From Eledone cirrhosa (taxonomy: Eukaryota), in assembly GCA_964016885.1 (NCBI GenBank), contig OZ024740.1, positions 337,776,001 to 337,840,000 on the forward strand: a DNA stretch of 64,000 nucleotides, written 5' to 3'. Below, one piece after another: positions 10,482 to 64,000 of the stretch. Made by a program: the position numbers and the translations under genes. The stretch's first letter is position 1. Each line of letters opens with the position of its first letter. A model generated the notes under the pieces. That model saw nothing but the letters and a program-made list of their open reading frames with translations. It searched no databases and was not told the origin of the DNA.

Positions 10482-10892
10482 CAGGAGAACATGATATGAA
10501 GGCTAAAAAAACACTTGTGGATAGTGCAGTTTTAAATCAACATATGAAAAATGGTTTTAGATTGATGTGTGATATTGGGAAAAATATTTTATTTAGAGAG
10601 GGGGGGGGGAGGATGAAAGGGGAGGAGATGAGAGGGAGAGATGGGTGATAGAGAGAAAGAGATAGTTTTTATAACTGAGAGGAGATATATTTTTTACATA
10701 GAGAGGTTGAAAACCGTTGGAAGATACTGTATAAATTAAAAATTTTGAAAATTAACGAAGGGAGGATATGTGCGAGGAAAAATATTTTATTTAGGGAGGG
10801 GGGGGGGGTGGAAAGGATGAAAAAAAAAATCACTCATTAATAATCACTCATTAATAATCACTCATTAATAATCACTCATTAATAATCTCTCT

Positions 10893-11324
10893 AATTGCAA
10901 CTGCCGCATTAAAAATAAATGTCCTCTCAACAACCATTGCCTCGATAAAAACTTAATTTATGAATGTAAAATTATAACTAGCACCAATTCCTTCACCTAT
11001 TTTGGCTCCACTTCCACCTCTTTTAAAGCTCGTCTCTATAATCATCATTCATCTTTCAAATACAAACTTAAAAGAACTAACACTGCTCTCTCAGAACTCA
11101 TATGGTCCTTAAAAGACAAAAACATTAAATATACCATCTTTTGGAAGAAGATTTCTTCTGCATCCTCATACTTGAACAGCTCTCTATCTAAAATCTGTAA
11201 TCTCTGCCTAAATGAAAAATTAACCATTATCTCTAACCTAGATTCTATAATAAATAGACGCTCAGATTTGTTTTCTATCTGCCTGCATAAATTCCATAGA
11301 ACTTTTCACAAAGTATACAGTTAA
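10893..11324 (+). CDS. GIY-YIG endonuclease C-terminal part of a Naiad-type PLE ORF (5'-truncated, no ATG, uninterrupted frame)
   Basis: Manual translation: NCNCRIKNKCPLNNHCLDKNLIYECKII...TYFGSTSTSFKARLYNHHSSF...TALSELIWSLK...ICNLCLNEKLTII...INRRSDLFSICLHK...*. Confidence 0.85.
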   Translation, partial: NCNCRIKNKCPLNNHCLDKNLIYECKIITSTNSFTYFGSTSTSFKARLYNHHSSFKYKLKRTNTALSELIWSLKDKNIKYTIFWKKISSASSYLNSSLSKICNLCLNEKLTIISNLDSIINRRSDLFSICLHKFHRTFHKVYS

Positions 11325-12656: not shown

Positions 12657-12716
12657 AATAAACAATTATGGTGATTTAATCCTGTCTTAACTACCATTAT
12701 TTGATATACATATTCG

Positions 12717-12908
12717 GGCGGTGGATTGGCAGTATCGGTAGAGGGTCGGACGCTATGCTTTGACGTATAGAGTTACGGCCCTTGCCATTCTGAGTTCAAA
12801 TCCCGCCGAGGTTAACTTTGCCTTTCATCCTTACGGGGTCGATAAAATAAAGTACCAGTAATGCTCTGGGTAATTTCTGGCCTTGTGCCAAACGTAGAAA
12901 CAATTATT
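12717..12908 (+). mobile_element. Full-length SINE family A
   Basis: A box tggcagtatcgg, B box gttcaaatcc, and tail ctggccttgtgccaaacgtagaaacaattatt. Confidence 0.9.
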
Positions 12909-35359: not shown

Positions 35360-36487
35360 TATTGCCGAAGTCAACTTTGCATTTTATTTTTCCAGGTCCG
35401 TAAAATAAAGTACTAGTGCAGAACTGGGGTTGATATTATCAACTTCTCCCTCCTTAAACTGCTGGCCTCATGCCTAAATTAAAAAACCATTATTACTGAG
35501 GGCGGTGGATTGGCAGTATCGGTAGAAGGTCGGACGCCATGTTTTGACGCATAGAATTACTGCCCTCGCCATTCTGAGTTCAAATCCCGCCGAGGTTAAC
35601 TTTGCCTTTCATCGTTACGGGGTCTATAAAATAAAGTACCAGTAATGTACTGAGTAATCGCTGGCCTTGTGCCAAAAGTAGAAACAATTATTACCGAGGG
35701 CAGAATAAAAAGAAATGCTTTGCAGAATTTGTTCTAAGTTTTTAAGTTTTTAAGATTCAAATTTGACCAAGATTAACTTTCTCTTTCATCCTTCAGTGAC
35801 CAATAAAATAAAGTACCAGTTATGTACTTGGGTCAATTTTATCGACTTTTGCATGAGTTAGAAAGCACTATTATTATGGTCATTTAAGAGAGGGAAAAGT
35901 CGATTAAATCGATGCCAGTGCATTACTGGTACTTTATTTTATCAATCCCGTACGAACGAAAGGCAAAGCTAATCCTGCCAAGGTTAGCTTCACCTTTCAT
36001 CCTTACGGGGTCGATAAAATAAAGTACCAGTCACGCACTGGGTCGATTTAATCGACTCCCCCCCCCCAAAAAAAAAAATTGCTGGCCTTGTGCCTATATA
36101 AGAAACCATTTTGGCAGTGTTGGTAGAAGGTCGGACGCCATGCTTTGACGCATAGAGTTACGGCCCTTGCCATTCTATGTTCAAATCCCGCCGAGGTTAA
36201 CTTTGCCTTTCATCCTTATGGGTCGATAAAATAAAGTACCAGTAATGCACTGGGTAATTGCTGGCCTTGTGCCTAAAGTAGAAACAATTATTATGTGGAT
36301 TGGCAGTATCGGTAGAGGGTCGAACGCTATGCTTTGACGCGCAGAGTTACGGCCCTTGCCATTCTGAGTTCGAATCTCGCCGAGGTTAACTTTGCCTTTC
36401 ATCCTTACGGGGTCGATAAAATAAAGTACCAGTAATGCACTGGGTAATTGCTGGCCTTGTGCAAAAAAGTAGAAACAATTATTATTA
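35360..36487 (+). mobile_element. Tandem cluster of ~7 SINE family A copies/fragments (one inverted at 35888-35972)
   Basis: Repeated consensus units separated only by short ATT tails. Confidence 0.9.
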
Positions 36488-37795: not shown

Positions 37796-37838
37796 GTCAT
37801 AGTTCTTTCGCCACACACTCTGTGACCTCTTCAGTGAC
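37796..37838 (-). ncRNA. Minimal hammerhead ribozyme (inverted pLTR)
   Basis: Minus strand: gtca CTGAAGA ggtcaca-gagtg-tgtggc GAAA gaac TA tgac. Confidence 0.8.
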
Positions 37839-37939
37839 TGGGGATTCCTTTCTTGGTTTCTGTGCCTCTCCTTTGTTCTGTCCTACGCCATTTTGTTTCT
37901 GTGTGTGTGTTGTGTGCTCAGTCTGCGCATGCGCCACCT

Positions 37940-39385
37940 ACCATTATCTCAATGGCCAAGAAAACCCACACAGATAGATGGAACGGGTGGACCAGAGCCA
38001 TACGGACACCCGAAAACCACGATGAACTGAAGAAAATGATTGCACATGCGGTAGGGGCCAGCATAAAACTAACCCTTAAGGAACATATGTTCAAATTTAA
38101 TGGAAAAACATATGCCCAGGAGGAAGGAGCAGCCATTGGTGTTAGCATTGCAGGCGACATAGCTAACTTATTCATGGTATGGTGGGACAGTAGACTTAAA
38201 CTTAAACTTAAAGAACAATTAGAAGACCCCTTAACCCTGATAATGTACTCCCGCTACGTTGATGATATAAACATCGTAGTTAAGACACCCCCACTAGAGA
38301 ACAGTCAGGAACTAGAGAAAAACACAATGGAAAGCATCCAGCAAATAGCTAACTCCATCCACCAGAGCATTAGAGTTACTATAGACTACCCAAGTAAACA
38401 CCCCAACCATCGATTACCTGTACTAGACACAGAGCTCTGGTTAGATACCATTAATAACAAAAAACAAAGCCTCCATTCCCATTATGCCAAACCCATGACT
38501 TCCAAACATCTGATCCACCGAAACTCGGCCGTTTCGGACCATACCAAAATCAACATACTGATTGCGGATTTGGTACGGGTGATGAGAAACGTGTCCCGCA
38601 TGTGCTACCCCGAAGAACTAGAGAGACACATACAACACTTCATCCACCGTATGCAGTTCTCTGGCTACAATCAGAGAGATAAAATCAGAGTGTATAGAGG
38701 AGCCAGAACCAAATGGGAAAAAATGGTAAATAATGACATAAATGGGACCTGCCCCTTGTATAGGAGCAAATTTTGGAATAGAATAGAAAGAACTAGGAAC
38801 AAGGCTAATAGAATAAACTCATGGTATGATAGCAATAAATACCAGAGTGTAATGTTCATCGATACAACCCCTAGAGGTGAATTAGCTTACAAATTTAGAA
38901 GGGCCCTAGATAAACATAAACTCAATATTAAGATAGTAGAAAGACCAGGTACCTCCGTAAAAACACTTATTAGCAAGACATACCCTTTTCAAAGACCCTC
39001 ATGTATAGATAAGAAATGTATAACCTGTAAAATAAGCCCCCATATTAACTGTAAAACTAGAAATGTAGTGTATAGCATAAGATGTACCGAAGGATAATGT
39101 AGAGACAAAAATATAGTGTACATAGGTGAGACAGCTCGTAGTGTAGGGGAACGGATAAATGAACACTGGCGAGACCTTCAAGATAGTAAAGAATCATCTG
39201 TACTCTACCAACATGCTAAAATAGAACACAAGGGTAAATTAGAGAACATAGAAATAAAAATAGAATCTACACACAGAAAAGACGCAATGTTTAGACAAAT
39301 CACAGAGGCAATAAACATAAAAGAATTACAACCAAAATTAAATAGAAAATATGAGTGGAACAGCAACATCACAATTTACAATTAA
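37940..39385 (+). pseudogene. PLE RT + Cys-rich linker + GIY-YIG endonuclease; single in-frame TAA at 39095-39097
   Basis: QEEGAAIG, YSRYVDDI, LPVLD, CIDKKCITC, CKTRNVVYSIRCTEG*CRDKNIVYIGETARSVGERINEH, EAINI...LNRKYEW. ORFs 37853-39097 and 39116-39385 are in the same frame. Confidence 0.92.
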
Positions 39386-50774: not shown

Positions 50775-51202
50775 AAATACAGTGTGAGATAGAGAAAATT
50801 TGTGAAAGATAGATAGGGTGGGAGAGTGTTGATTAATAAATATTTTACTGGAACATAGCCACGGACTTTTGCTAATAATAATTGTTTCTACTTTTGGCAC
50901 AAAGCCAGCAACTACTCCAGTGCATTACTGGTACTTTATTTCATTGACCCCGTAAGGAAGAAAGGCAAACTTAACCTTGGCGGGATTTGTTAACTTTGCT
51001 TTTCATCCTTCCGGGTGTCAATAAAATAAAGTACCAGTAATAAACTGGGATAATTGCTGGCCTTCTGTCAAAAGCAGAAACAATTATCATTATTAGCAAA
51101 AACCCGTGGCTACGATCCAGTAAAAATATTTGTTAATCAACATTTCCTCCATATCTATCTTTCACAGACTTTCTCTCTCTCTCTCTGTCTCACACTGTAT
51201 TA
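50775..51202. repeat. Diverged ~430-bp fold-back made of a SINE A 3' half plus ~100 bp of flank
   Basis: aatacagtgtgagatagaga...tagccacggacttttgctaataat mirrored by attattagcaaaaacccgtggcta...tctcacactgtatt; centre ~50985. Confidence 0.8.
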
Positions 51203-51423
51203 AATAATTCTTTCTGATTTAGGCACAAAGTCAACAATTTTGTGGGAGGGGAAAGTCATTTAAATCAACTCCAGTGCATTACTGGTACTTTATTTTATTG
51301 ACCCTGTAAAGATGAAAGGCAAAGTTAACTTCGGCAGGATTTGAACTCAGAATGTAAAGAGCCGAGCTCTATGCCAGAAAGCATGGTGTCCAATGCTCTA
51401 CCAATACTGCCAATCCACTACCC

Positions 51424-51424
<1 letters not shown>
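51203..51424 (-). mobile_element. SINE family A abutting the 3' end of Tx1 copy 1
   Basis: Consensus match; followed by (AAT)n. Confidence 0.88.
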
Positions 51425-51466
<42 letters not shown>

Positions 51467-51724
51467 TTCTTTATTAACCACAAGGGTTTACATAAAGTAG
51501 ACATTAAGGACAGTGCAGGACAATGCAGGACGGTACAAATGGGCATTTCTGCGTGTAAAAAACAAAAACAGAGGATGTAACAAAAATAACAATGAAAATA
51601 ACAATGAAAAATTCCCCAATAGGGGGGAGACTTCGGAGGGACATTTGTGGTGAAAGCCCAGTAAAAAGCCACAATGACCCTGACCACCAAGGCAAGTGCC
51701 CTCTCCCAGTTTTCCACCTTTAAT

Positions 51725-54700
51725 TTACAGATATATACTCAGAGTAGGCCCATTCACTCGGGCCATTCTTGCTTCTCTCACCCATCTTTCAACAAAAAGC
51801 TGGGAAGAGAGCACTTCCCTCTCTACTCTGATTTTCCTTTTCAAATGAAATTTGAAAAAGTCAATCAGAGCATCACCGAAGAGGTAAGTGCTCGTCTTCA
51901 GCCCTTTCAAACGTGTCCACCATACTATCTCTTTCACCATGGCCACCAGGCAGATAAAAACTGCCTGCCCTTCCCGGCTAAAGGAGGAGGGCGGGGCAAT
52001 CCTCACGATGGACTCAGATGATAGCCGGATCCGTCCTAAACGCGACAGCAGGTGTTCGACATAAACCCACAAGTCAGCAATTTTCGGACACTGGACGAGT
52101 GCGTGCAGGACGGTTTCGTCGCCCTGCGCGCATCTCGGACATGCCCGGCTGACGGCACCTCCATGCCTGTAGAGTTTATCCCGAACTGGCAAGGCTCCTC
52201 GGTAGCACTGCCAGGCCAGAGATTTCTGGAAGTTGTCCATTGGCCCTGGCCCGAAAGTTCTTCCGAAGAGATTGGCTAGTTGATTTTCGTCGACGCCTAG
52301 AGTTTCCCCAAGTACGTCATCGCTCTTCCCCTCCACTAATCCTCTATAGAACGCCGAGGTGGAGTTTCCACCGATCACATTGCCCGATTGGTCGAGGGCT
52401 GTGAGCGCCTGAAGACATTCCAGTCTCCAGGCGCTCCCTCTCGGTCTTCGCTTGACCCAGGACTGCAGCTCCGTCAAGGAAACGAGCTGGGGAAACACGC
52501 GCCTAGCAAACGGCGACCACACCTGATCACCGTCGAGGAAGAGGTGGAGATGTCGTAGCCTGAGCGCGTGCCTGCGCATCATCAGCCACGGCATGCCCAG
52601 CCCTCCACGTAGCGGGTGTTGACAACAGATGGACCGCCTGACCATCGGAGCGCGTCCCTTCCACAAAAAGCGAAAGAGCAAACGCTCCAGCGCAGTCAGG
52701 CGAGGCTTAGGACAAGGTACGACGGTCAGACGGTAGCAGATGACGGACGCGATGTACGCGTTAGCCACCTCCGCTCGACCTTTCAGGGATAGCTTCCTCT
52801 CCGCCCATTTCTGGGTGAGAGAAGCCACCCTGCTCGTCACCTCGTCCCAGTTTTTGTCCGTCTGGAGGTCCGGACCGAACCAGACCCCTAGCAATTTAAC
52901 CGGTCCGTCCGTCCAGCGTCCGACGACGCTGTTGGATGGCATGGACTTGCCTCTCCAGGTGCCGAGCTGCAGGCCCACTGACTTTTCCTGGTTGATCATT
53001 GCTCCTGTCACCGCTTCGTATTCTCTTAGTGTAGTGCCGATCGCCTCGATGTGTTTGGCGCTCGACACCACTACGGTGACATCGTCCGCATATGCTGACA
53101 CTGATCTTCCGCATCCTAGTTCGCGCGGGACTCCCCTCAACGTCTCCAGTTTGTGCAGTAATGGCTCGAGAGTCAATACGTACAAGAGGGACGAGAGGGG
53201 ACATCCTTGGCGGACCGAGCGCATGATGTTGAACGGTTCCGACAGGTGACCGTTCACTCTCACCACAGAGCAGATGTCGCTGTGCATGGCAGCGATCCAG
53301 CCTCTGAAGACGGGCCCAAAGCCAGCCGCCCTCAGGACTGCCGCTAGGTAACGATGGTCGACCCTATCGAAAGCTTTCGACTGATCTAAATTGATCAAGG
53401 ACCCACCCGTGCCAGGTTCCCTAGCTACCCTCTCTACGATGTATCGCATGAGGTGGAGGTTGTCGTGGATGGATCTGTCGGGAATGGCGCATGTCTGCGC
53501 CTCTCCCACCAGACCACCAACGACAAGCGCCAACCTCTTTGCTAGCACCTTGGCCAAAATCTTAAACTCTGTGTTTAGCAGAGTTATGGGCCGGAAATTG
53601 TCTATGTTATCCCCCTTGTTCGGATCCTTTCTCAGCAGTGCCACCGCTCCTCGGCTCACAGAACTGGGAATTCTCCCGTTCTGTTGCCAGTTGCAGTAGA
53701 CGTCCGCCAAGAGGCCTCCGAACAAGTCTGGCATCTGTACGTAAAGTTCATAGGGCAGACCATCCAAACCAGGCGATTTACCCCTTGTGCAGCCAGTCAT
53801 TGCCTCCCGTACTTCAGCGGCTGTTATCGGCTTTTCGCAACACCTCGCCTCAGTGGCCGAGAGCCGCGGCAGTCCGTCGAGGTAGACACTAAAGTCCATC
53901 CCTCTACCCGGCCCCCCGCTGCCCCCGAACAGCTGAGCGAAGTGTCGCTGAAAAGCTTCACACATTTGCCCGGGATCGAGTAGCATGCGCCCGTCGTGGT
54001 CCACCAAAGACCGGATCGTGGCTTTGTTGCCACGACGCGCCTCCGCCACTCGGGCCCATTGAACGGCTTTCGTCCCCTCGTGTCTGAGAGCACGCATCCT
54101 AGCTCTGACAACGCAGCCTTCGTGCTTTGCATTGAAGAATTGGTCAAGGGCCAATTTCGCCGCAAGCACGTCGGTCGCAATGCCTTTGCTAAGCGCCTCG
54201 TCTAATTTTCTAACTAGTCTTCCCTCTGCTCTATTTTTCTCTATTGCTAAAGCCTTACTAAACCTAATCGATTCTATTCTAATCGCTCTTTTCAGAGCAA
54301 ACCACCACTTGTTGTTGACGATGGCCCCCGTCAACGCCCGCTTAACTAGTTCGCTAATCCGGTCTCTGTAGGCCTTGCGCGCTGGTAAGGACGCGTTTAG
54401 CTTCCAGTAGCCGGGTCCTCGTCTATGAAGCCTATCTAAGTCAAGCACACAGGTCACGAATTTGTGGTCCGTGTAGCTGACTATCTTGAATTGTGGACAG
54501 CCTATGCTAGACCTATCTATTTCCCTACAAAATACTCTATCTAGATATGATCTGGATGACCCTATGTGGTTTGTCCAAGTCCACATTGGCACATTCGGGA
54601 AATCCAATCGGTACCTGTCAGACAGTTCAAAACGCCTGAGCAGGTTGGTGAGGCTCTTGCACCCTCCACCCCTATCCGCTAATCCCACACAGTCCCATCG

Positions 54701-55144
54701 TGCATCTAAGATCCCGTTCCAGTCGCCCACTAACACTAAAGAGCGGGACGTTCCAAGAAAGGTCTCCAGACGCCGGAAGAAATCAGGCCGCCCTGCTCCT
54801 GTCGGGGCATAGACGGCCACTAGCCTGAAAGCTTGCCCGTCTCCGCTGGTCACGTCCAGCACCACCAGCTTACCCTCTGGGTCCAGGAAGATGGCCCGTA
54901 TGGCGAGATCCAAACCTCTCCGAAAAAGCACAGCAACTCCTCCACCCGATCCCGGACGGCTGGGAGATGCGTACACATCGTAGCCGCCGAAGATCGGTGC
55001 GAAGGCCCGTGCTTCGGAGATTCTGGTCTCGCTGATGGCCACTACATCTATGTTTAGTGACCTGAGGTCGTTGAGCAGGTGACCCTGCTTCCATGACGAC
55101 CCCAAGCCACGCGCATTTATGCTGCCTATTCTGAGTGAGGTCAT
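51725..55144 (-). CDS. ORF2: APE endonuclease + reverse transcriptase + C-terminal Cys/His motif (1139 aa, intact)
   Basis: SINARGL, SET, VYAP, GDWN, YLDR, TDH; KSPGLDG, FRPITLLN, DQSKAFD, RQGCPLS, YADD; CPRC...ETVLHALVQC. Confidence 0.96.
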   Translation of the reverse strand: MTSLRIGSINARGLGSSWKQGHLLNDLRSLNIDVVAISETRISEARAFAPIFGGYDVYASPSRPGSGGGVAVLFRRGLDLAIRAIFLDPEGKLVVLDVTSGDGQAFRLVAVYAPTGAGRPDFFRRLETFLGTSRSLVLVGDWNGILDARWDCVGLADRGGGCKSLTNLLRRFELSDRYRLDFPNVPMWTWTNHIGSSRSYLDRVFCREIDRSSIGCPQFKIVSYTDHKFVTCVLDLDRLHRRGPGYWKLNASLPARKAYRDRISELVKRALTGAIVNNKWWFALKRAIRIESIRFSKALAIEKNRAEGRLVRKLDEALSKGIATDVLAAKLALDQFFNAKHEGCVVRARMRALRHEGTKAVQWARVAEARRGNKATIRSLVDHDGRMLLDPGQMCEAFQRHFAQLFGGSGGPGRGMDFSVYLDGLPRLSATEARCCEKPITAAEVREAMTGCTRGKSPGLDGLPYELYVQMPDLFGGLLADVYCNWQQNGRIPSSVSRGAVALLRKDPNKGDNIDNFRPITLLNTEFKILAKVLAKRLALVVGGLVGEAQTCAIPDRSIHDNLHLMRYIVERVAREPGTGGSLINLDQSKAFDRVDHRYLAAVLRAAGFGPVFRGWIAAMHSDICSVVRVNGHLSEPFNIMRSVRQGCPLSSLLYVLTLEPLLHKLETLRGVPRELGCGRSVSAYADDVTVVVSSAKHIEAIGTTLREYEAVTGAMINQEKSVGLQLGTWRGKSMPSNSVVGRWTDGPVKLLGVWFGPDLQTDKNWDEVTSRVASLTQKWAERKLSLKGRAEVANAYIASVICYRLTVVPCPKPRLTALERLLFRFLWKGRAPMVRRSICCQHPLRGGLGMPWLMMRRHALRLRHLHLFLDGDQVWSPFARRVFPQLVSLTELQSWVKRRPRGSAWRLECLQALTALDQSGNVIGGNSTSAFYRGLVEGKSDDVLGETLGVDENQLANLFGRTFGPGPMDNFQKSLAWQCYRGALPVRDKLYRHGGAVSRACPRCAQGDETVLHALVQCPKIADLWVYVEHLLSRLGRIRLSSESIVRIAPPSSFSREGQAVFICLVAMVKEIVWWTRLKGLKTSTYLFGDALIDFFKFHLKRKIRVEREVLSSQLFVERWVREARMARVNGPTLSIYL

Positions 55145-55179
55145 GTTTAAAATAGAGTGGAAAAGATGGGAAAGACCAC

Positions 55180-57280
55180 TTACCGTACTTTTGGTAGAGG
55201 AGGGATGGTTTTTACATCCCTTTTCACTTGATCGTCTGGTGAAGGGACCGTTGAATCGTCCCTTCGGCTGGTCGTCGGCTCTTCTAAGAGAATGTCTGAA
55301 TATACTCTTCGATTGATGGTTCCTCCTAGGTCCCTGAAATCACCAACTGCGTTGAGGAATTTCGTTTTAATGTTTGTGTATTGTTTCTGTGCTATTTTTA
55401 GCAGTCTTATGTTAGTTGGCGTTTTGATTGGTGCTGGTATTATGTAGTCCTGTTGTGAAATGTCTGTGTGTTCAATTATGTAAGTCATTAGTTTCTTGTT
55501 GTGTGTATTTATTGCCGTGCATTTGTTTTTCTGGGGGTGGGGCGTGGTTCTGCTATTTTCTTGTCGTTGTTGCTGGGTGTGTGTGTTTTGTTGTTGTGTT
55601 TGCGATGTTGGTGCTTGTGGTGGTGGTGTTGAAGGTGTTGTTGGCGGTGGGGTTGTCGCCGGTGGTGATGGTGGTGCTAGTGTGGGTGGTGATGGTGTTG
55701 GTGGTGTTGCTGCTGTGGGTCTCTTTGCAGTAGACTTTACCCTTTTCTCATTTCTTTCCTCCCTTTTCAAAGGCGACGATGCGCTGCTTCTGCGTTTGTG
55801 CCTTCTTACGACCTTTTGCCATCCCTCTCCCACCTCACACTCCATGTCTGATTCTGTGAGGTCGGGGAGGGGTACCAGCTCCACTCTTTCACTTGTTGTT
55901 GTTGGTGATGTTTGCACTGGAGTCTCTGTTGCAGCTGCATTTGGTATTGCTGTTGTTGTTAATATTTCCACTGCTGCTGCTGTTTTTGATTTCCGTGGAG
56001 TGGGTATGGGTGCTACGGACCTATCGTTCCTGGTTTCCGCTTGTCCTGTTGCTGGTAGCCGTGGAGCCGGATTCGGAAGGAGGGGGGTTTTCTCCTTTCT
56101 CAGGGTCTTCTCGTTGCAGAAGGCCCTGAGGTGAGTCTTCGATCCACAGCGAAAGCATTTCGGGCGTTTGCCCTCAACACTTATGGGCAGTTGAGTGCCG
56201 TTATCGAAGTCTATCACATCCGGGATAGCTTCGATGCACTCCTGGTTGGTTTGGATTAGCATCTCAATGGAGGTGCCGACCCAATCTTCTCTTACTTTTT
56301 TCTGTACTTGCAGTACAGTTGTTTTGTCCTCGATTCCGACGAGGACAGACGCGGCCAGGCAAGAAGCGGCCATTCGGGGGGGGGGGGGGGGAGTGGGTCA
56401 GTTTGACCCTCACACTTTTTTGCCCGCAGTAGGAGGGCACCAACACCATTTCCTTGCTCCTTAGGGTCACTACTGATTGGGCCTTTGCCTCCTGGGGTGT
56501 GGCAAAAAGTACGTCTACGGTGGCATATTTTTTTCCTCGGGTGATGTGCGTTTTCCGCTGCCACACAGACCCCAAGGCTTTTTGTATCTGAGCCTCTGTG
56601 GCTCTTTCCACCCTACGGGATTTTGTACTTACTGTACGGTACGTGACCGTACAGTGCTGTTGGGTTTCGAAAAATTTTTCCGCTGCCTTGCAGATTGCTC
56701 GGTGTCCATTCTTTGTCACCATCTTCTTCGCTTCCTCTAATTCCTCATTTGTTATGAGGATTGTTTCCAAGTTTTTCGCAATGCCTGCAAATGAGATTGG
56801 TTTTTCTTTGCTGCTATTGTTGTTGTTGTCGTCAGAGCTGCTGGTACTTTTGTTGTTGCTGCAGGTACTACGACTACTGCCTCCGCCGCTGTTGCTGTGG
56901 TTGTTGTTGGTGTTGCTGCTGCTAATGCTGTTGTTGTTTATGCTGCTGGTGATGCTGTTGCGGCTGCTACTGTTGTTTTCATTGTCACTGTTGCTGTTGT
57001 TATTACGGCTGCTACTGCTATTATTCCTGACGTCAGACGAATGAACTGGGTTTTCGTATTTCCCGCACACCTGTTTCGTCGCTGTCGTCGTGGAGAAACC
57101 TTGCACGCTTTGCACGAGATTTTTCTTTTCTGTCGTCACTTGCGAAAGAGAAGGGAGGGAGAGAGACACATTTAAAGAAGGGAGGAAGAGAGACAATCTT
57201 CTCTCTGCTGTAGTGATGATTGAGGAAGAAGAAGACGGAATGAGTGGGAGTGACGTATGAAATTTCTTTTTCGTAGCCAT
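55180..57280 (-). CDS. ORF1 (gag-like, CCHC knuckle), split by a frameshift at the G16 run 56376-56391
   Basis: ORFs 56264-57280 and 55180-56373 meet at the homopolymer; CFRCGSKTHLRAFC; N/S-rich and P/T-rich low-complexity tracts. Confidence 0.85.
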
Positions 57281-57495
57281 GTTGTTTTTTTGTTTAAAAT
57301 GAATATTGGGTACAAAACCCCAATAACTGGTTATTTAACCCCGAAGGGCCAAATAACGAACAGAAAGACCCCTCTCACTAGGAGGAGGGTGTCTTTATCA
57401 ACAATTTGGTTCAAGTTTTAAACAATTTACAATTGTTTTAACGGTTAAAAATTACTATACCTTACAGAGCCGAGCCTCCGTCAACCATGGCATTC

Positions 57496-57527
<32 letters not shown>

Positions 57528-57531
<4 letters not shown>

Positions 57532-57710
57532 TGTTTCTACTTTAGGCACAAGGCCAGCAAATTACTCAGTGCATTACTGGTACTTTATTTTATCGACCCC
57601 GTAAGGATGAAAGGCAAAGTCAACCTCGGCGGGATTTGAACTCAGATCGTAAATGGACGTAACTATGCTGGAAAGCATGGCGTCCGACCCTCTACCGATA
57701 CTGCCAATCC
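57528..57710 (-). mobile_element. SINE family A between Tx1 copies 1 and 2
   Basis: Consensus match with (AAT)n on both sides; nearly identical to 62978-63165. Confidence 0.92.
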
Positions 57711-57716
57711 ATAATA

Positions 57717-60700
57717 ATGATTTCATTTATTGGCCACAAGGGCCAACATATAGGGGACAATACAAAAGACTGGGACAGTGGGGTTTTACAGAAAAATCGA
57801 GTAAACAATATGAATAACAATAACAAAGTAACAATAACAAAGTAACAATAACAAAGTAACAATAACAAAGTAACAATAAAGTAACAATAAAATTACAAGA
57901 AAAAATTCCCCAATAGGGGGGATGACCACCTAGGGTTCGCTCAGGTACCCCACCAGTCCTCAACGACCCGACGCTTCGAGAGCACCCTGGAACAGCACCC
58001 CTCTCCTCCTCAAATTTACCTACCTACAGCCGCATGCCAGAGTAGGCCCACTCACACGGGCCATTCTCGCCACATTCACCCACCTTTCAGCAAATGTACT
58101 GGGGGGGGGGGGGGGGGGGGGGGGTCAGCACTTCTCTCTCCACCCTCACCTTCCTTTCCAAGTGAAACTTGAAAAAGTTGATGAGGGATTGGCCGAATAG
58201 AAAAGTGTCTGTCTTCAGTCCTTTCAACCACGTCCACCATAAACCTCTTTCGCTACTGCCACCAAACAGAGGAAAATTCCCTGCCCTTCCTGGCCAAAAG
58301 AAGGCGACGGGTCGATCTTTATTATGGACTCGGCCGATAGCCGGATCCGTTCTACACGCGACAACAGCTGTTCCACATAACTCCACAAGTCAGTAATGCA
58401 TGGACACTGGACGAGTGCATGCAGAACGGTTTCGTCGCTCTGCGTGCATCTCGGGCAGGTCCGTCTGACAGCACTTCCGTGCCTGTAGAGTTTATCTCGA
58501 ACCGGCAGTGCCCCCCGGTAGCACTGCCAAACGAGAAATTTTTGGAAATTATCCATCCCCGGCTCGAAAGTCCTCTGGTACAGACTGATTAGTTCGACTT
58601 CGTTGACTCCCAGAGCCTCTCCGAGTGCGTCGTCGCACTTGCCCACCACTAATCCTCTATAGAACTCGAGAGTGGAAGTCCCACTGACCGCATTGCCCGC
58701 TTGGTAGAGGGCAGTGAGTGCCTGGCAACATTCCAGATGCCAATCACCCAGTCTCGGTCTCTTCTTGACCCAGGACTGCAACTCAGTCAAAGAAACGAGC
58801 TGCGGAAAGTCCCGTCTGACAAACGGTGACCACACCTGTTCACCGTTTAGGCAGAATATCTAGATATACCGCATCCTAAGCGCGTGCCTGCGCATCATTA
58901 GCCACGGCATGCCCAGCCCTCCACGTAGAGGGTGCTGGCAGCAGATGGACCGCTTCACCAGCGGAACCTGACCCCTCCACAAGAATTTGAAGAGGAGCTG
59001 CTCCAACATGGCGAGGTGTGAACGGGGCAAGGGACGACAGTCAGATGGTAGTAGATGACGGACGCGATGTACGCGTTCGCCACCTCCACCCTACCTTTCA
59101 GTGATAGCTTCATCCCAGCACATTTCTGGGTGAGACTGACTACCCTGCCCGTCACCTCGTCCCAATTCTTATCCACCTGGAGGTCTGGCCCGAATCAGAC
59201 CCCTAGCAACTTTACCGGTCCGTCCGTCCAGCGCCTAACGATGCTGTTGGACGGCATGGACTTGCCTCTCCAGGTGCCGAGTTGCAAGCCCACTGACTTT
59301 TCCAGGTTAAGTTTCGCTGCCGTCAACCTTTCATATTCCTCCAATAAGTTGCCGACCACCTCGATTTCTGAGGTGTCCGACACCATCACTGTGATGTCGT
59401 CCGCATAAGCCGACACAGCCTTTCCGCGTCCCGGTTCGAGCAGGATGCCCTGCAACAGCTCCAGCTTCCGCAGTAAAGGCTCGAGAGTCAATACGTACAG
59501 AAGGGAGGAGAGAGGGCACCCTTGACGGACCGATCGGGAAACCTGAAACGGTTCCGAGAGGTGGCCATTAATTTTGACCATCGAGCAGGTGCCGCTGTGC
59601 ATTGCAGCGATCCAGCTTCTGAAGACGGGGCCGAAGCCAGCCGCCTTGAGGACAGCCTCCAGGTACCAATGGTCGACCCTATCGAATGCTTTCGATTGAT
59701 CTAAATTGATCAGAGCCCCACCGAAGCCAGGTTTATACCCTACTCTCTCTATGATGTATCGCATTAGGTGGAGGTTGTCGTGTATGGACCTGGTTGGGAT
59801 TGCGCAAGTTTGCGCCTCCCCAACCAAATTCCCGACGACAAGCGCCAACCTCTTCGCTAACACCCTGGCCAAAATCTTAAACTCTGTGTTGAGCAGAGTT
59901 ATGGGCCTGAAATTGCCTAATGTGTCCCTCTTGTTCTCGTCTTTCCTTATCAGCATTACTACGCCCGGCTCACAGAACTGGGAATACTCCCGTTTTGCTG
60001 CCAGTTGCAGCAGAGAACTTCGAGGAGATTGGAAAACAAGTCTGGCATATTTACGTAAAGCTCGTAGGGCAGACCATCCAAACCGGGTGACTTGCGCCTC
60101 ATGCAGCCGACAAGGGCATCCTGAATCTCGGCTGAAGTAATTGGCCTTTCGCAGCGCCCAGCGTCAGCCGTCGAGAGTTGCGGAAAGCCATCGAGGTAGG
60201 GACTGAAATCCGTCACCATCTCTGCCCCGCCACTTCCCCCAAAATGTTGGCGAAAGGCCTCACACATCTTCTTGGAATCGCTCAGCTCATGCCCGCCTCG
60301 GTCCGTCAAAGACCGAATCGTGGTTTTATTGCCACGCGGGCCCATCAAACAGCTTTGGTTCCTTCGTTTCTCAGAGCATGCGCCTTAGCTCTAACAATGC
60401 AACCTTTGTGTTTCGCATTGAAGAAATGGTCTAATGCCATTCTCGCCGCTAGCACGTTAGTTGCAATGCCACTACAAATAGCCTCGTCTAAGTTATCTAC
60501 CAACTCCCCCTCCTTTCTATTTTTCTCTAACGTAACTTCTTTGCTAAACTCTATCGACATTACTCTAATCTCTCTTTTGAGAGCCCCCCCCCCCCCCCCC
60601 ACCATCTATTGTTGACGACTCCTCCTGTCAACTTTTTCTTAACTAAATTGTTGACCTGGTCCCTGTAAGCCTTACGTGCCAGAAATGACGTGTTTAGCTT

Positions 60701-62942
60701 CCAGTAACCAGGTCCTAATCTACGCGTCTTATCTAGGTCGACCATACAGATCACAAACTTGTGATCTGAATAGGCGACCGTTTCAAAACGTGGACAGCTT
60801 ACATTATTTCAGTCTATTTTCCTAATGAATATCCTGTCTATATACGATCTAGATGACCCTATGCGGTTAGCCCAGGTCCACACTGGCGCATTAGGGAAAT
60901 CTAGTCGGTACCTGTCAGACAGTTGGAACTGGCTGATCAGGTTCATGAGGCTTTTGTACCCCCCGCTCCTATCAGATACTCCCACACAGTCCCAGCGTGC
61001 GTCTAAGATGCCGTTCCAGACCCCCGCTAACAGTAAAGGGCGAGACGTACCCAGAAAGGCTTCCAGGCGTCTAAAGAAGTCCGGCCCTCCTGCCCCAGTA
61101 GGAGCATAGACGGCCACCAGTCTAAAGGCACCATCTTCGTTATTGTTCACGTCCAGGACCACCAACTTCCCGTCCGGGTCCCGGAAGATCGACCTTACCT
61201 TGAGATCCAGGCCTTTCCTAAACAGCACTTCCACCCCGCCTCCCATTCCCGGCCGGCTAACAGATGCAAAGATCTGATAGTCGTCGAAAATGGGGGCTAG
61301 TGCGCGCGTGTCGGAAATCCTGGTCTCGCTGACGGCAATTACATCCATTTCTATAGACCTGAGGTCGTTGAGCAGGTGACCCTGCTTCCAGGACGATCCC
61401 AGGCCTCGAACATTTAAACATCCTACTCTTAATACGGCCATGTTGGCAGGTTAAATAGAGAGAGAAGAAGGTTTACTTACCTTCCGGGCTCTTGTGAAGG
61501 TCGGGTTGTTCGACCTCTATAGTTGGTAGGGTTTCTTTTGGGAACCCCTTTAAAAGTCTTGAAGTGGGTTTTACGTTCGGGGTTCACACGTCCCGAGGAA
61601 AGCTGTCTCGTATTTCTTTGAATATATCGAGCGACATTCACACAGAACTAAATCTTCCGGCACGCGAAATGTGCTCGATTTAAAAATTTCCCCCTCTTTT
61701 TGTATATTTTCACTTCGTGTTACGAGGGCCATCAGTTCCTTGTTGGCCCTCCTGACAAGCATGAAGTTTTGTATGTTTTGTTGGTGTGATTTTATTTGTT
61801 TGCGTGGCTGTGGTGGTGATGGTTTTGGTGGTGTTGTTTCGGTTGTATCTGTGTTTGTTGTGAGTGTGGTGTCTGTGGTTTCAGATGTTTGTGTGTATAT
61901 TTGTTCTTGCGTCTGTTTAGGTTGTTTGCGTTTGGAGGATTCTGGTGATGGTGATGGAGGTGTTGATGTTGGTGTTATTGGAGAGATGTTTGCGTGGGTG
62001 GTGTCTGCGTTTTTTATTGTGGGTGATTTTGTGCTTTATTGAGTTTTTTTTTTCTTTTTGTGTTTCCTTTTTTGTATTTTGGGGATTTTGGTTTTCCCTC
62101 ATCTTCACTACTGGTAGATGAGACGTCTGTGTCTGTAAGTGTGTCTGTATGTATGTTTATGGTTTTATTGGTGTGTATTTTGGGGGGAGGGGGAATTTGA
62201 CAGCTTTCCTCGTTTCCCCCCTGGGTGGTCAATGTTGGTGGTGGTCTTTCTATTTGTGTTGTTGTTGGTGGTTTTGCCGGTACTGGTGTTGCCGGTGCTG
62301 GTGTTTGTTTGAGAGGTCCATGTTGAAGCATGGCCTCTTTTTTGCTGCTGCCGCAGCGAAAGTGTTCTTCTTGTTTTCGTTGGAAGTGTTGTGGTCGTTG
62401 TTGTTGTTCTTGTTGGTGTTGTTGTTAGCACTGTCGCTGTTATCATTGTTGTCTTTGTTGCCACCGTTGTTCTCGGTGCAGTTGGTATTGTTGCTGTTGG
62501 TGTTGTCGCTATTTGTTTTCATGTTAATGGTGTTGATATTGTTGTTGTATTTGTGATTTTTTTTTTGTTATCTGTATTTTCCTTGTCGCTGTTATTGTAT
62601 TTTTTTCAAAATTAGAGTTCTCATTGGTATCATTTGTGTCTTTGTTTACATTGTTTGTGGTGGTGTTTGTGTTAATTTCGGTGTAGCGCTCCTCTCAACT
62701 TCCACGTTGTTGTCGCACGACAGCAGACATATCGCTGGGGGGCGTGGCTCAGCCATGTTTTTTTTTCTTCGTAAATGTTTTAACATGTAAAATATTTGGG
62801 CCAAATATTATACTTTCCTCTTCACAGGGCAAAGTCTAAGGGCTTATATCCCTTACACAACAAGAAATATTTAACAACAAATAATTTTAACAGGCAAATA
62901 AAGCGACTTACTGGGAGTGAGCAAAATACGTCCGCTTAGACC
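57717..62942 (-). mobile_element. Tx1-like retrotransposon copy 2 (diverged sister family, decayed)
   Basis: ORF2 pieces from 61441 to ~58025 are homologous to copy 1. ORF1 is shortened (start ~62756). (AAT)n flanks. Confidence 0.92.
58025..61441 (-). pseudogene. Fragmented ORF2 (APE-RT) of copy 2
   Basis: LNVRGLG, GPGYWKLN, KSPGLDG, YADD and CPRC spread across frameshifted ORFs. Confidence 0.92.
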
Positions 62943-62977
<35 letters not shown>

Positions 62978-62981
<4 letters not shown>

Positions 62982-63165
62982 TGTTTCTACTTTAGGCACA
63001 AGGCTAGCAATTACCCAGTGCATTACTGGTACTTTATTTTATCGACCCGTAAGGATGAAAGGCAAAGTCAACCTCGGCGGGATTTGAACTCAGATCGTAA
63101 AGGGACGTAACTATGCTGGAAAGCATGGCGTCCGACCCTCTACCGATACTGCCAATCCACCGTCC
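62978..63165 (-). mobile_element. SINE family A between Tx1 copies 2 and 3
   Basis: Consensus match with (AAT)n on both sides. Confidence 0.92.
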
Positions 63166-63179
63166 TAATAATAATAATA

Positions 63180-64000
63180 ATGCTTTCTTTATTAAGTACA
63201 CAAAGTAAAACATTAAGGACAATACAGGACAGTACAAATGGACATTTCTGCATGTAAACAAAACAAAAACAGAAGATGTAACAAAAACGAAACAATGAAA
63301 AAATTCCCCAATAGGGGGGAGACTTCCGAGGGACATTCGTGGAGAAAGCCCATTAAAAAAGACACGGTGACCCTGACCACCAGGGCAAGTGCCCCCTCCC
63401 AGTTTTCCACCTTCAATTTACAGGCACATACTGAGAGTAGGCCCGTTCACACGGGCCATTCTTGCCTCTCTCACCCATCTTTCAACAAAATGCTGGGAAG
63501 AGAACACTTCCCTCTCTACACTGATTTTCCTTTTCAAATGAAATTTGAAAAAGTTAATCAAGGCATCACCGAAGAGGTAAGTGCTCGTCTTCAGCCCTTT
63601 CAAGCACGTCCACCATACTATCTCTTTCGCCATGGCCACCAGACAGATAAAAACTGCCTGCCCTTCCCGACTAAAGGAAGAGGGAGAGGTAATCCTCACG
63701 ATGGACTCAGCTGATAGCTGGATCCGTCCTACACGCGGCAGCAGGTGTTCGACATAAACCCACAAGTCCGCAATGCTCGGACACTGGACGAGTGCATGCA
63801 GGACGGTTTCGTCGCCCTGCGCACATCTCGGACATGCCCGGCTGACGACACTTCCATGCCTGTAGAGTTTATCCCGAACTGGCAAAGCTCCTCCGTAGCA
63901 CTGCCAGGCCAGGGATTTTTGGAATTTGTTCATAGGCCCCGGCCCGAAAGTTCTTCCGAAGAGATTGGCTAGTTGATTTTAGTTGACGCCTAGAGTTTCC
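63180..64000 (-). mobile_element. Tx1-like retrotransposon copy 3, 3' end (same family as copy 1; continues beyond window)
   Basis: ORF 63418-63933 closely matches the copy 1 ORF2 C-terminus; 3'UTR is collinear with 51465-51720. Confidence 0.92.

Follow-up and report, generated by a model that had tools for sequence, protein, structure and literature searches.

Pairs of short and long interspersed elements (SINEs and LINEs) that share a 3′ tail are of a known kind. A published count gives 58 such pairs in its available sections, three of them with L1-clade tails and all three in plants or algae (PMC3472496). In the zebrafish L2 model, as laid out in the accessible parts of PMC4176376, the loop of the shared hairpin is essential while the stem is exchangeable provided that pairing holds. 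L1-group LINEs are the stated exception to SINE–LINE tail sharing in the available text of two sources (PMC3472496; PMC3747384), and Table 1 of PMC3747384 contains neither a Tx1 partner nor a mollusc. For bivalves, the sections at hand name CR1, CR1-Zenon, L2, and Nimb as SINE partners (PMC11481361; PMC4758252; PMC4824008). Papers on octopus repeats report L1-Tx1 as well as abundant SINEs but, in their accessible portions, do not pair them (PMC13282606; PMC8967140), and the accessible portion of PMC7245038 has no Tx1.

Here, we analyze 64,000 nt of the octopod Eledone cirrhosa (assembly GCA_964016885.1, contig OZ024740.1, positions 337,776,001 to 337,840,000 of the forward strand; hereafter, "the window"), in which three Tx1-like LINEs (LINE1, LINE2, and LINE3) stand in a chain with copies of an abundant SINE. 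The sequence comparisons below indicate that the partner of this SINE is, with high probability, an ATT-type Tx1 LINE and that the hairpin at their common end is probably recognized by the protein of the second open reading frame (ORF2p), i.e., that the two form a candidate stringent pair. No tail-sharing Tx1–SINE pair was found in the literature searched, within which the Tx1 case is apparently new; subscription papers, Repbase Reports, the 1994 octopus SINE paper, and figure alignments fell outside that search, so a prior description is possible.

A Shared 3′ End

The last 25 bases of the SINE and its ATTAT landing site are held in common with (ATT)n-targeting Tx1 LINEs, which makes copying in trans by the Tx1 ORF2 protein likely. 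Specifically, LINE1 and LINE2 end in a stem-CTTGT-stem followed by AATAAA(T)GAAATC and then ATT, and the SINE ends in GGC-CTTGT-GCC followed by (T/A)AAAGTAGAAACA and then ATT, in the same register. Common to the three is a register-matched stem, CUUGU loop, and GAAA.

The terminal strings quoted in a preliminary description of the window were all located on the minus strand at the positions given, and the LINE1 hairpin (AACC-CTTGT-GGTT) is real as proposed. The LINE2 string is present too, but its 6-bp stem (TTGGCC-CTTGT-GGCCAA) is a few-copy variant of a family form with a 4-bp stem (TCGGCC, 14 of 25 copies in the cluster). Likewise, the SINE hairpin exists, though its fourth pair is T-T in the copy cited and in about half of all copies (TA in 47 and TT in 46 of 101). 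In the SINE, the (ATT)n tail said to be kept is mostly the start of the target-site duplication. LINE3 had been offered as a covarying example (TAC-TTTGT-GTA, 63197–63207), and this we reject: the string aligns upstream of the LINE1 hairpin (TACTTTATGTA) and is not homologous to it. About 10 nt holding the true LINE3 hairpin have been lost, while its cluster-mates retain AACC-CTTGT-GGTT. This deletion is private, as the exact pattern across it occurs once in the 3.0-Gb genome; the hairpin-less end has not spread.

A profile was built on 57 distinct Tx1 end types, with 1,621 other sites preceding ATTATT as controls. The 111 SINE ends score a median of 2.7 bits vs. −33 for the control sites, and the seven control sites that reach the SINE median resemble, by eye, Tx1 or SINE ends. 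For the commonest SINE end, 2 of 20,000 shuffles reach its profile score (p = 1.5e-4). Across nine family representatives, identity between the ATT lineage and a sister Tx1 lineage with TATC repeats is 0.75 in the final 25 columns, vs. 0.08–0.51 in the preceding non-coding windows of the 3′ untranslated region (UTR). The 1.68 Mb of fetched DNA contain 158 SINE-type tails, each attached to a SINE body or fragment and none to a LINE. The same hairpin was not found in the 3′ regions of 14 examined members of a set of 80 distant metagenome relatives (25–40% identity).

Covariation of the Stem

The stem was evaluated in an alignment of 23 family representatives, comprising five SINE rows and 18 LINE rows. 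The LINE rows represent nine multi-copy clusters, one extra TATC copy, and eight of 24 singletons picked as distinct and undecayed—an omission of decayed singletons that biases toward pairing. In this alignment, 83 of 92 stem cells are paired (90.2%, vs. 72.1 in shuffles), the covariation score is 0.495 (vs. 0.189 shuffled; 0 of 500 shuffles as high, and every slid control lower), and RNAalifold recovers the same stem unprompted. On the tree, pair 3 went from G-C to A-U two times, in one case with a G-U sister alongside; at pair 2, all 18 LINE rows have C-G and all 5 SINE rows have G-C. When all 116 copies are considered, the stem is unreadable in 12 and pair 3 is standard in 97 of the remaining 104. 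The constant core consists of a 3-bp stem and a Y-Y-N-R-U loop, mostly CUUGU. The covariation first proposed from the window stands on compensatory changes in copies other than those cited; with LINE3 dropped, it comprises few independent events, and 3 bp are constant.

The SINE and Its Landing Sites

The 864 kb surveyed for the SINE combine the window with 20 kb of adjacent DNA and 15 blocks whose placement took no account of content. A profile search returned 174 matches (3.1% of this DNA) in a short and a long form of ~185–215 bp, i.e., a short, non-coding, high-copy element with target duplications. Its head holds box-like TGGCAGTATCGG and GAGTTCAAATCC, which resemble, by eye only, the A- and B-box consensus; ARAGORN and Rfam scans found no tRNA and no RNA family. 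Directly upstream of the terminal hairpin lies a second one, CCAGT-n5-ACTGG, with constant stem and variable loop (57564–57580 on the minus strand of the window, and most copies). Identity with MetaSINEs, which have a 66-bp Meta domain after the head, was not supported, the BivaMeta and BivaMD alignments in the available part of the PMC4824008 supplement being unlike the SINE body by eye. The available BivaCORE sequences, compared for the CORE domain of OR1/OR2-type SINEs, have no clear likeness to the SINE, again by eye, and motif searches in bivalve and gastropod supplements gave no match.

Among 87 full copies, the end was located in 82, of which 36 have a duplication of at least 12 bp (vs. 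5% of shuffled flank pairs). Duplications could be resolved in 38 cases; they span 11–21 bp and 34 start exactly with ATTAT, a count whose first three bases are partly set by the procedure that locates the SINE end. In an independent direct-repeat scan of 814 kb (a 50-kb satellite block left out), 12 of the 17 duplications starting with ATTAT surround a hairpin-ended insert. As nine other start words yield 3–11 matches each with 0–1 hairpin ends, the five hairpin-less ATTAT duplications represent background. Across the whole genome, 19,992 SINE tails run into ATT repeats and none into TATC repeats. Another SINE or a Tx1 tail lies directly in front of 21 of the 87 copies. Nearest-neighbor identity has a median of 92% and reaches 97% at best (84 of the 87 sampled copies).

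The Tx1 LINEs and Their Targets

LINE1 is a two-ORF element whose ORF2 carries Pfam domains PF03372, PF00078, and PF13966, i.e., an APE endonuclease, a reverse transcriptase (RT), and a C-terminal zf-RVT zinc motif. Because its ORF2 is intact but its ORF1 is broken, LINE1 is a family representative and not a demonstrated source element. At the same search size, its ORF2 reaches 378–466 bits with five U2 small nuclear RNA (snRNA)-associated elements from metagenomes (presumably Keno-type, judging by target) and 179 bits with human L1 ORF2p, which points to the octopod LINEs being closer to Tx1 than to L1 proper. In an RT tree built without a named L1 or Tx1 reference, the octopod rows form their own branch inside an unresolved L1/Tx1 group. 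Among named relatives of ORF2, the closest comes from Argonauta hians, with 73% identity across the part searched, and comparison with a protein atlas returned only generic RT/EN clusters. Many unnamed ORF2 relatives (P0003–P0080), ~50% identical to LINE1, are sister to the octopod branch. Some metagenome Tx1-type elements lie beside or inside U2 snRNA genes, and one adjoins 5S rRNA (loci L296, L306–L309, and L311).

The LINE1 family is young: 40 of 40 scored DNA matches are 99–100% identical, and 150 of 150 scored protein matches are 98–100% identical, many in full frames. All 20 full-length copies drawn from these 150 are preceded by (ATT)6 or more, which in 10 is the tail of another Tx1, SINE, or CR1. 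In 14 of 22 ATT-type copies truncated at the 5′ end, the junction there carries an ATT repeat. The sister Tx1 lineage, with an 1150-aa ORF2 that is 69% identical to that of LINE1, is young as well (150 of 150 scored matches identical over 150 aa). It carries the same terminal hairpin (loop mostly CCTGT) and a (TATC)n tail (L068:2186–5635 on the plus strand; L171–L200); 11 of its 16 truncated copies are preceded by TATC repeats, and it often inserts into its own tails.

Another ATT-inserted Tx1 family has GGGC-CTTGT-GCCC (or the loop CTTGA) in its 5′ UTR (L011, L029, L050, and L060, ~150 nt into the element that follows a LINE1 tail; L004 and L228). The polarity of this stem is that of the SINE and not that of the LINE tail, and the 5′-UTR hairpin could be the source of the SINE stem form. 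In LINE1 itself, a comparable position of the 5′ UTR carries another loop.

Other LINEs as Candidate Partners

LINEs were sampled from ~0.03% of the genome at random plus the best matches of three Pfam searches. The sample supplied the 3′ ends of Dong-R4, RTE, Penelope, and Hero-like elements and two of the Pfam searches those of CR1-type families, while L2, I/Nimb, and rarer families were not systematically covered. Dong-R4 (ending in (AAT)n), RTE (ending in (TA)n), Penelope, and Hero-like elements were rejected as partners, their ends being without a match. A LINE clade fitting the SINE tail better had been named in advance as what would overturn the partnership; none occurs among the LINEs sampled, where CR1, Dong-R4, and RTE ends fit worse. 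The proposed SINE–Tx1 partnership is supported by a shared register-matched end, a shared ATT target, duplications of L1-group size, and no better LINE in the sample.

Two CR1 candidates deserve closer comparison. The (ATT)n tail alone was discarded as evidence for Tx1, since a young CR1 family (945 aa) is also (ATT)n-tailed, and a second, CR1-like family ends in TGGCC-TGG-GCCAA...GAAACC plus (TATCAAAGT)n (L415, L419, L421, and L426). A CR1-type partner would accord with bivalves, whose SINE partners in the available part of PMC11481361 are the CR1, CR1-Zenon, L2, and Nimb types listed above. Yet the ATT-tailed CR1 end is mismatched (profile −16 bits; alignment p 0.8–1.0), and none of its listed 5′ junctions begins, by eye, an ATTAT duplication. 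One of four SINE variants aligns at its end to the second family with a local score of 19 (p = 0.004), but for the other three this family falls below the Tx1 ends; it also folds into a different stem and differs in its terminal repeat, and TATCAAAG follows none of the SINE tails in the fetched DNA. We consider either CR1 partner highly improbable.

Least probable of the alternatives weighed is a partner from a LINE family outside the sample (L2, I/Nimb, Hero, or another L1/Tx1 branch), which would make the Tx1 likeness a convergence or an old tail swap. The sampled fraction of the genome and a match of 25 nt in AT-rich sequence leave room for such a family; the register match of the motif (p ~1.5e-4), the lack of any LINE with a SINE-type tail in 1.68 Mb, and the independent agreement of the target site argue against it.

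Among the other LINEs, young (ATT)n-tailed CR1 families have a tandemly repeated 3′ UTR in some copies (L141–L170; L417, L423, and L424), and (ATT)n-tailed CR1 tails are used as Tx1 landing sites (L059 and L250). Dong-R4 LINEs and Tx1 elements share microsatellites in which their tails abut, the two being oppositely oriented (L012, L014, L019, L008, and L018; L081–L082).

Hairpin Recognition and Its Alternative

While the Tx1 partnership is the firmer claim, recognition of the terminal hairpin by ORF2p is also probable on the comparisons made here. In ViennaRNA predictions, the hairpin has a probability of 0.78–0.99 in the two LINE 3′ UTRs, and of 0.97 (short) and 0.83 (long) in the last 34 nt of the SINE folded alone.

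Several observations weigh against stringent pairing, or against the partnership itself. In full-length SINE RNA, the median closing-pair probability is 0.05 (39 short copies) and 0.005 (nine long copies), and the hairpin state lies 1.8 (short) and 3.2 (long) kcal/mol above the ensemble, so that protein binding or co-transcriptional folding would be needed to favor it. Eight of 23 rows, two multi-copy families among them, lack pairing at pair 4; two of four covariation measures, both count-based, are not above shuffles (337 of 500 and 163 of 500); and the alignment rows are related and the structure derived from the same sequences. The SINE–LINE match is short, with local scores of 16–24, and one CR1-like tail scores 12.5–19. 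LINEs sit in long ATT runs and the SINE mostly at short ATTAT sites, and a unique target duplication was resolved in 0 of 22 truncated LINE copies. To these are added the procedural share in the ATTAT count and the unmatched ages of LINE and SINE, the 99–100% identities of Tx1 being genome-wide best picks and not comparable with sampled SINE identities.

Part of this evidence is what would be expected if the ATT-type Tx1 mobilized the SINE loosely, with annealing of an (AUU)n 3′ end sufficing and the hairpin being a leftover or serving 3′-end processing or RNA stability near AATAAA. The hairpin is not dominant in folded SINE RNA and only 3 bp of its stem are constant. Moreover, the TATC lineage has the same hairpin but the SINE never occurs on TATC, which implies that the repeat end, and not the hairpin, picks the lineage. 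A published Tx1–SINE link, SINEU with Tx1-Mar, has poly(A) ends and no shared tail in the available text of PMC4494074. However, the SINE has retained stem and loop while AATAAA was lost, both bases of pair 2 are exchanged, there is no excess of ATTAT-duplicated passengers lacking the hairpin, ATT-tailed CR1 copies lack ATT at their 5′ junctions, and the hairpin-less LINE3 end is single-copy. On balance, we regard loose mobilization as unlikely and favor hairpin recognition.

Under hairpin recognition, the putative tRNA-like head would drive RNA polymerase III transcription of the SINE, and ORF2p of the ATT lineage would bind the terminal hairpin, which, like that of zebrafish L2s, would be identified by its loop while the stem gives the shape. 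Next, the APE domain would nick the AAT strand, to which the 3′ AUU end of the RNA may anneal and so prime reverse transcription, and second-strand cleavage 11–21 bp away would yield the target duplication. That AATAAA is all the SINE has dropped would be expected if this hexamer is an RNA polymerase II poly(A) signal of no use to it. These steps follow the L2 model as far as the available part of PMC4176376 sets it out, together with general knowledge of target-primed reverse transcription, and what the present DNA contributes is their sequence signatures. Absence of the SINE from TATC fits a two-key scheme (hairpin plus repeat) and also fits the looser mobilization.

Taken at its widest, the proposal describes the first L1-group lineage of an animal in which RNA recognition is stringent and hairpin-based and a SINE shares the tail. 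In this lineage, the CUUGU hairpin would license the RNA, the RNA-end repeat and the endonuclease would choose the microsatellite, and sister lineages would have split into ATT and TATC niches, with the dominant octopod SINE on the ATT one only. In our estimate this conjunction could fall either way.

Organization of the Window

The elements under study occupy the minus strand at 51209–64000 (Table 1) in the order LINE3 – (ATT)n – SINE – (ATT)n – LINE2 – ATT – SINE – (ATT)n – LINE1 – (ATT)n – SINE. Each insertion would add a fresh ATT site at its own 3′ end, which would explain this chain.

Table 1. Positions of the Tx1-type LINEs, SINE copies, hairpins, and ATT runs in the window.
Feature	Position	Strand	Remarks
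LINE1, full-length (~6.0 kb) young ATT-targeting Tx1-type LINE	51464..57495	-	20/20 full-length relatives with same 5′ end
LINE1 ORF2 frame, 1204 aa stop to stop, intact; APE endonuclease, RT, zf-RVT	51725..55339	-	
LINE1 ORF1, broken across two frames in window copy	55180..57334	-	689-698 aa in 10/20 relatives
LINE1 terminal hairpin AACC-CTTGT-GGTT, then AATAAAGAAATC (51464-51475)	51476..51488	-	closing pairs p ~0.8 in folded 3′ UTR
(ATT)n run, LINE1 tail to next SINE head	51426..51463	-	
SINE, older long subfamily; decayed hairpin GAC-TTTGT-GCC	51209..51424	-	
(ATT)n run at SINE tail, also where LINE1 landed	57496..57530	-	
SINE, short subfamily, within LINE2 ATT tail	57531..57712	-	
SINE terminal hairpin GGC-CTTGT-GCC, then TAAAGTAGAAACA	57545..57555	-	
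LINE2, older broken ATT-type Tx1 copy	57719..62942	-	ORF2 pieces 62-78% identical to LINE1
LINE2 terminal hairpin (TT)GGCC-CTTGT-GGCC(AA)	57730..57746	-	
(ATT)n run at SINE tail, also where LINE2 landed	62943..62981	-	
SINE, short subfamily, within LINE3 ATT tail; stem pair 3 is A-C	62982..63167	-	
LINE3, 3′ part of 5′-truncated ATT-type Tx1 copy; true terminal hairpin deleted	63182..64000	-	extends ~1 kb past window
Dispersed SINE copy, 19-bp target duplication starting ATTAT	12715..12905	+	
Head-to-tail SINE copies, each placed at preceding copy's ATT end	36111..36480	+	

Elsewhere in the window, inverted pairs of SINE fragments form palindromes (50779–51190 and 35890–36042), and Penelope-like fragments of two families (GIY-YIG; RT) lie at 10872–11324 and 37838–39097 (plus strand). 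Sampled loci L106–L110 hold a long satellite array with units of ~25–28 bp.

Significance and Relation to Known Systems

If the stringent reading is correct, an animal Tx1 case would support the view that the relaxed, poly(A)-type recognition of mammalian L1 is derived, and a young, intact family in an animal would allow the idea that L1 was ancestrally stringent to be put to the test. A motor would be named for a SINE covering ~3% of the sampled DNA, and the pile-up of SINEs and LINEs in chains would be explained. A 13-nt RNA handle and two sister enzymes with different targets would, furthermore, be open to direct tests.

Among described elements, the octopus SINEs OK, OR1, and OR2 (Ohshima and Okada 1994, as cited in the available parts of PMC4758252 and PMC4824008) are tRNA-derived, as the present SINE may be, and, compared by description only, are alike in being abundant and octopod. 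On the LINE side, the Tx1 elements Kibi ((TC)n), Koshi ((TTC)n), and those of crocodilians ((TTCC)n/(TTTC)n) are likewise APE-type and insert in one orientation into simple repeats (PMC4494074; PMC3812793); by the descriptions accessible there, the targets differ, being (ATT)n and, in the sister lineage, (TATC)n in the octopod. SINEU of crocodilians resembles the present SINE in its assignment to the Tx1 group via target preference. However, SINEU has an snRNA head and a poly(A) end, and no LINE shares the SINEU-1 3′ end in the available text (PMC4494074), whereas the octopod SINE has a putative tRNA-like head and a shared 3′ end.

Stringent L2-clade LINEs and their SINEs (ZfL2-1/ZfL2-2 and UnaL2/UnaSINE; available sections of PMC4176376 and PMC3747384) have the same architecture, i.e., a shared 3′ stem-loop before a short repeat, with the loop kept and the stem exchangeable. 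The octopod pair differs from these in its Tx1 (L1-group) LINE, ~25 nt of shared sequence, 3–4-bp stem, and target-specific insertion. The L1-group pairs of plants and algae—ZmSINE2/3 with LINE1-1_ZM in maize and sorghum, and SINEX-3 with L1-1_CR in Chlamydomonas—likewise have a SINE-shared LINE 3′ hairpin with variable stem and conserved loop and, as accessible in PMC3472496 and PMC3747384, are like the octopod pair and unlike the L2-clade ones in that their stringency is read from sequence alone. Set against these plant and algal pairs, the octopod case has an animal host, belongs to the Tx1 branch, uses a microsatellite tail and target instead of poly(A), and carries another loop.

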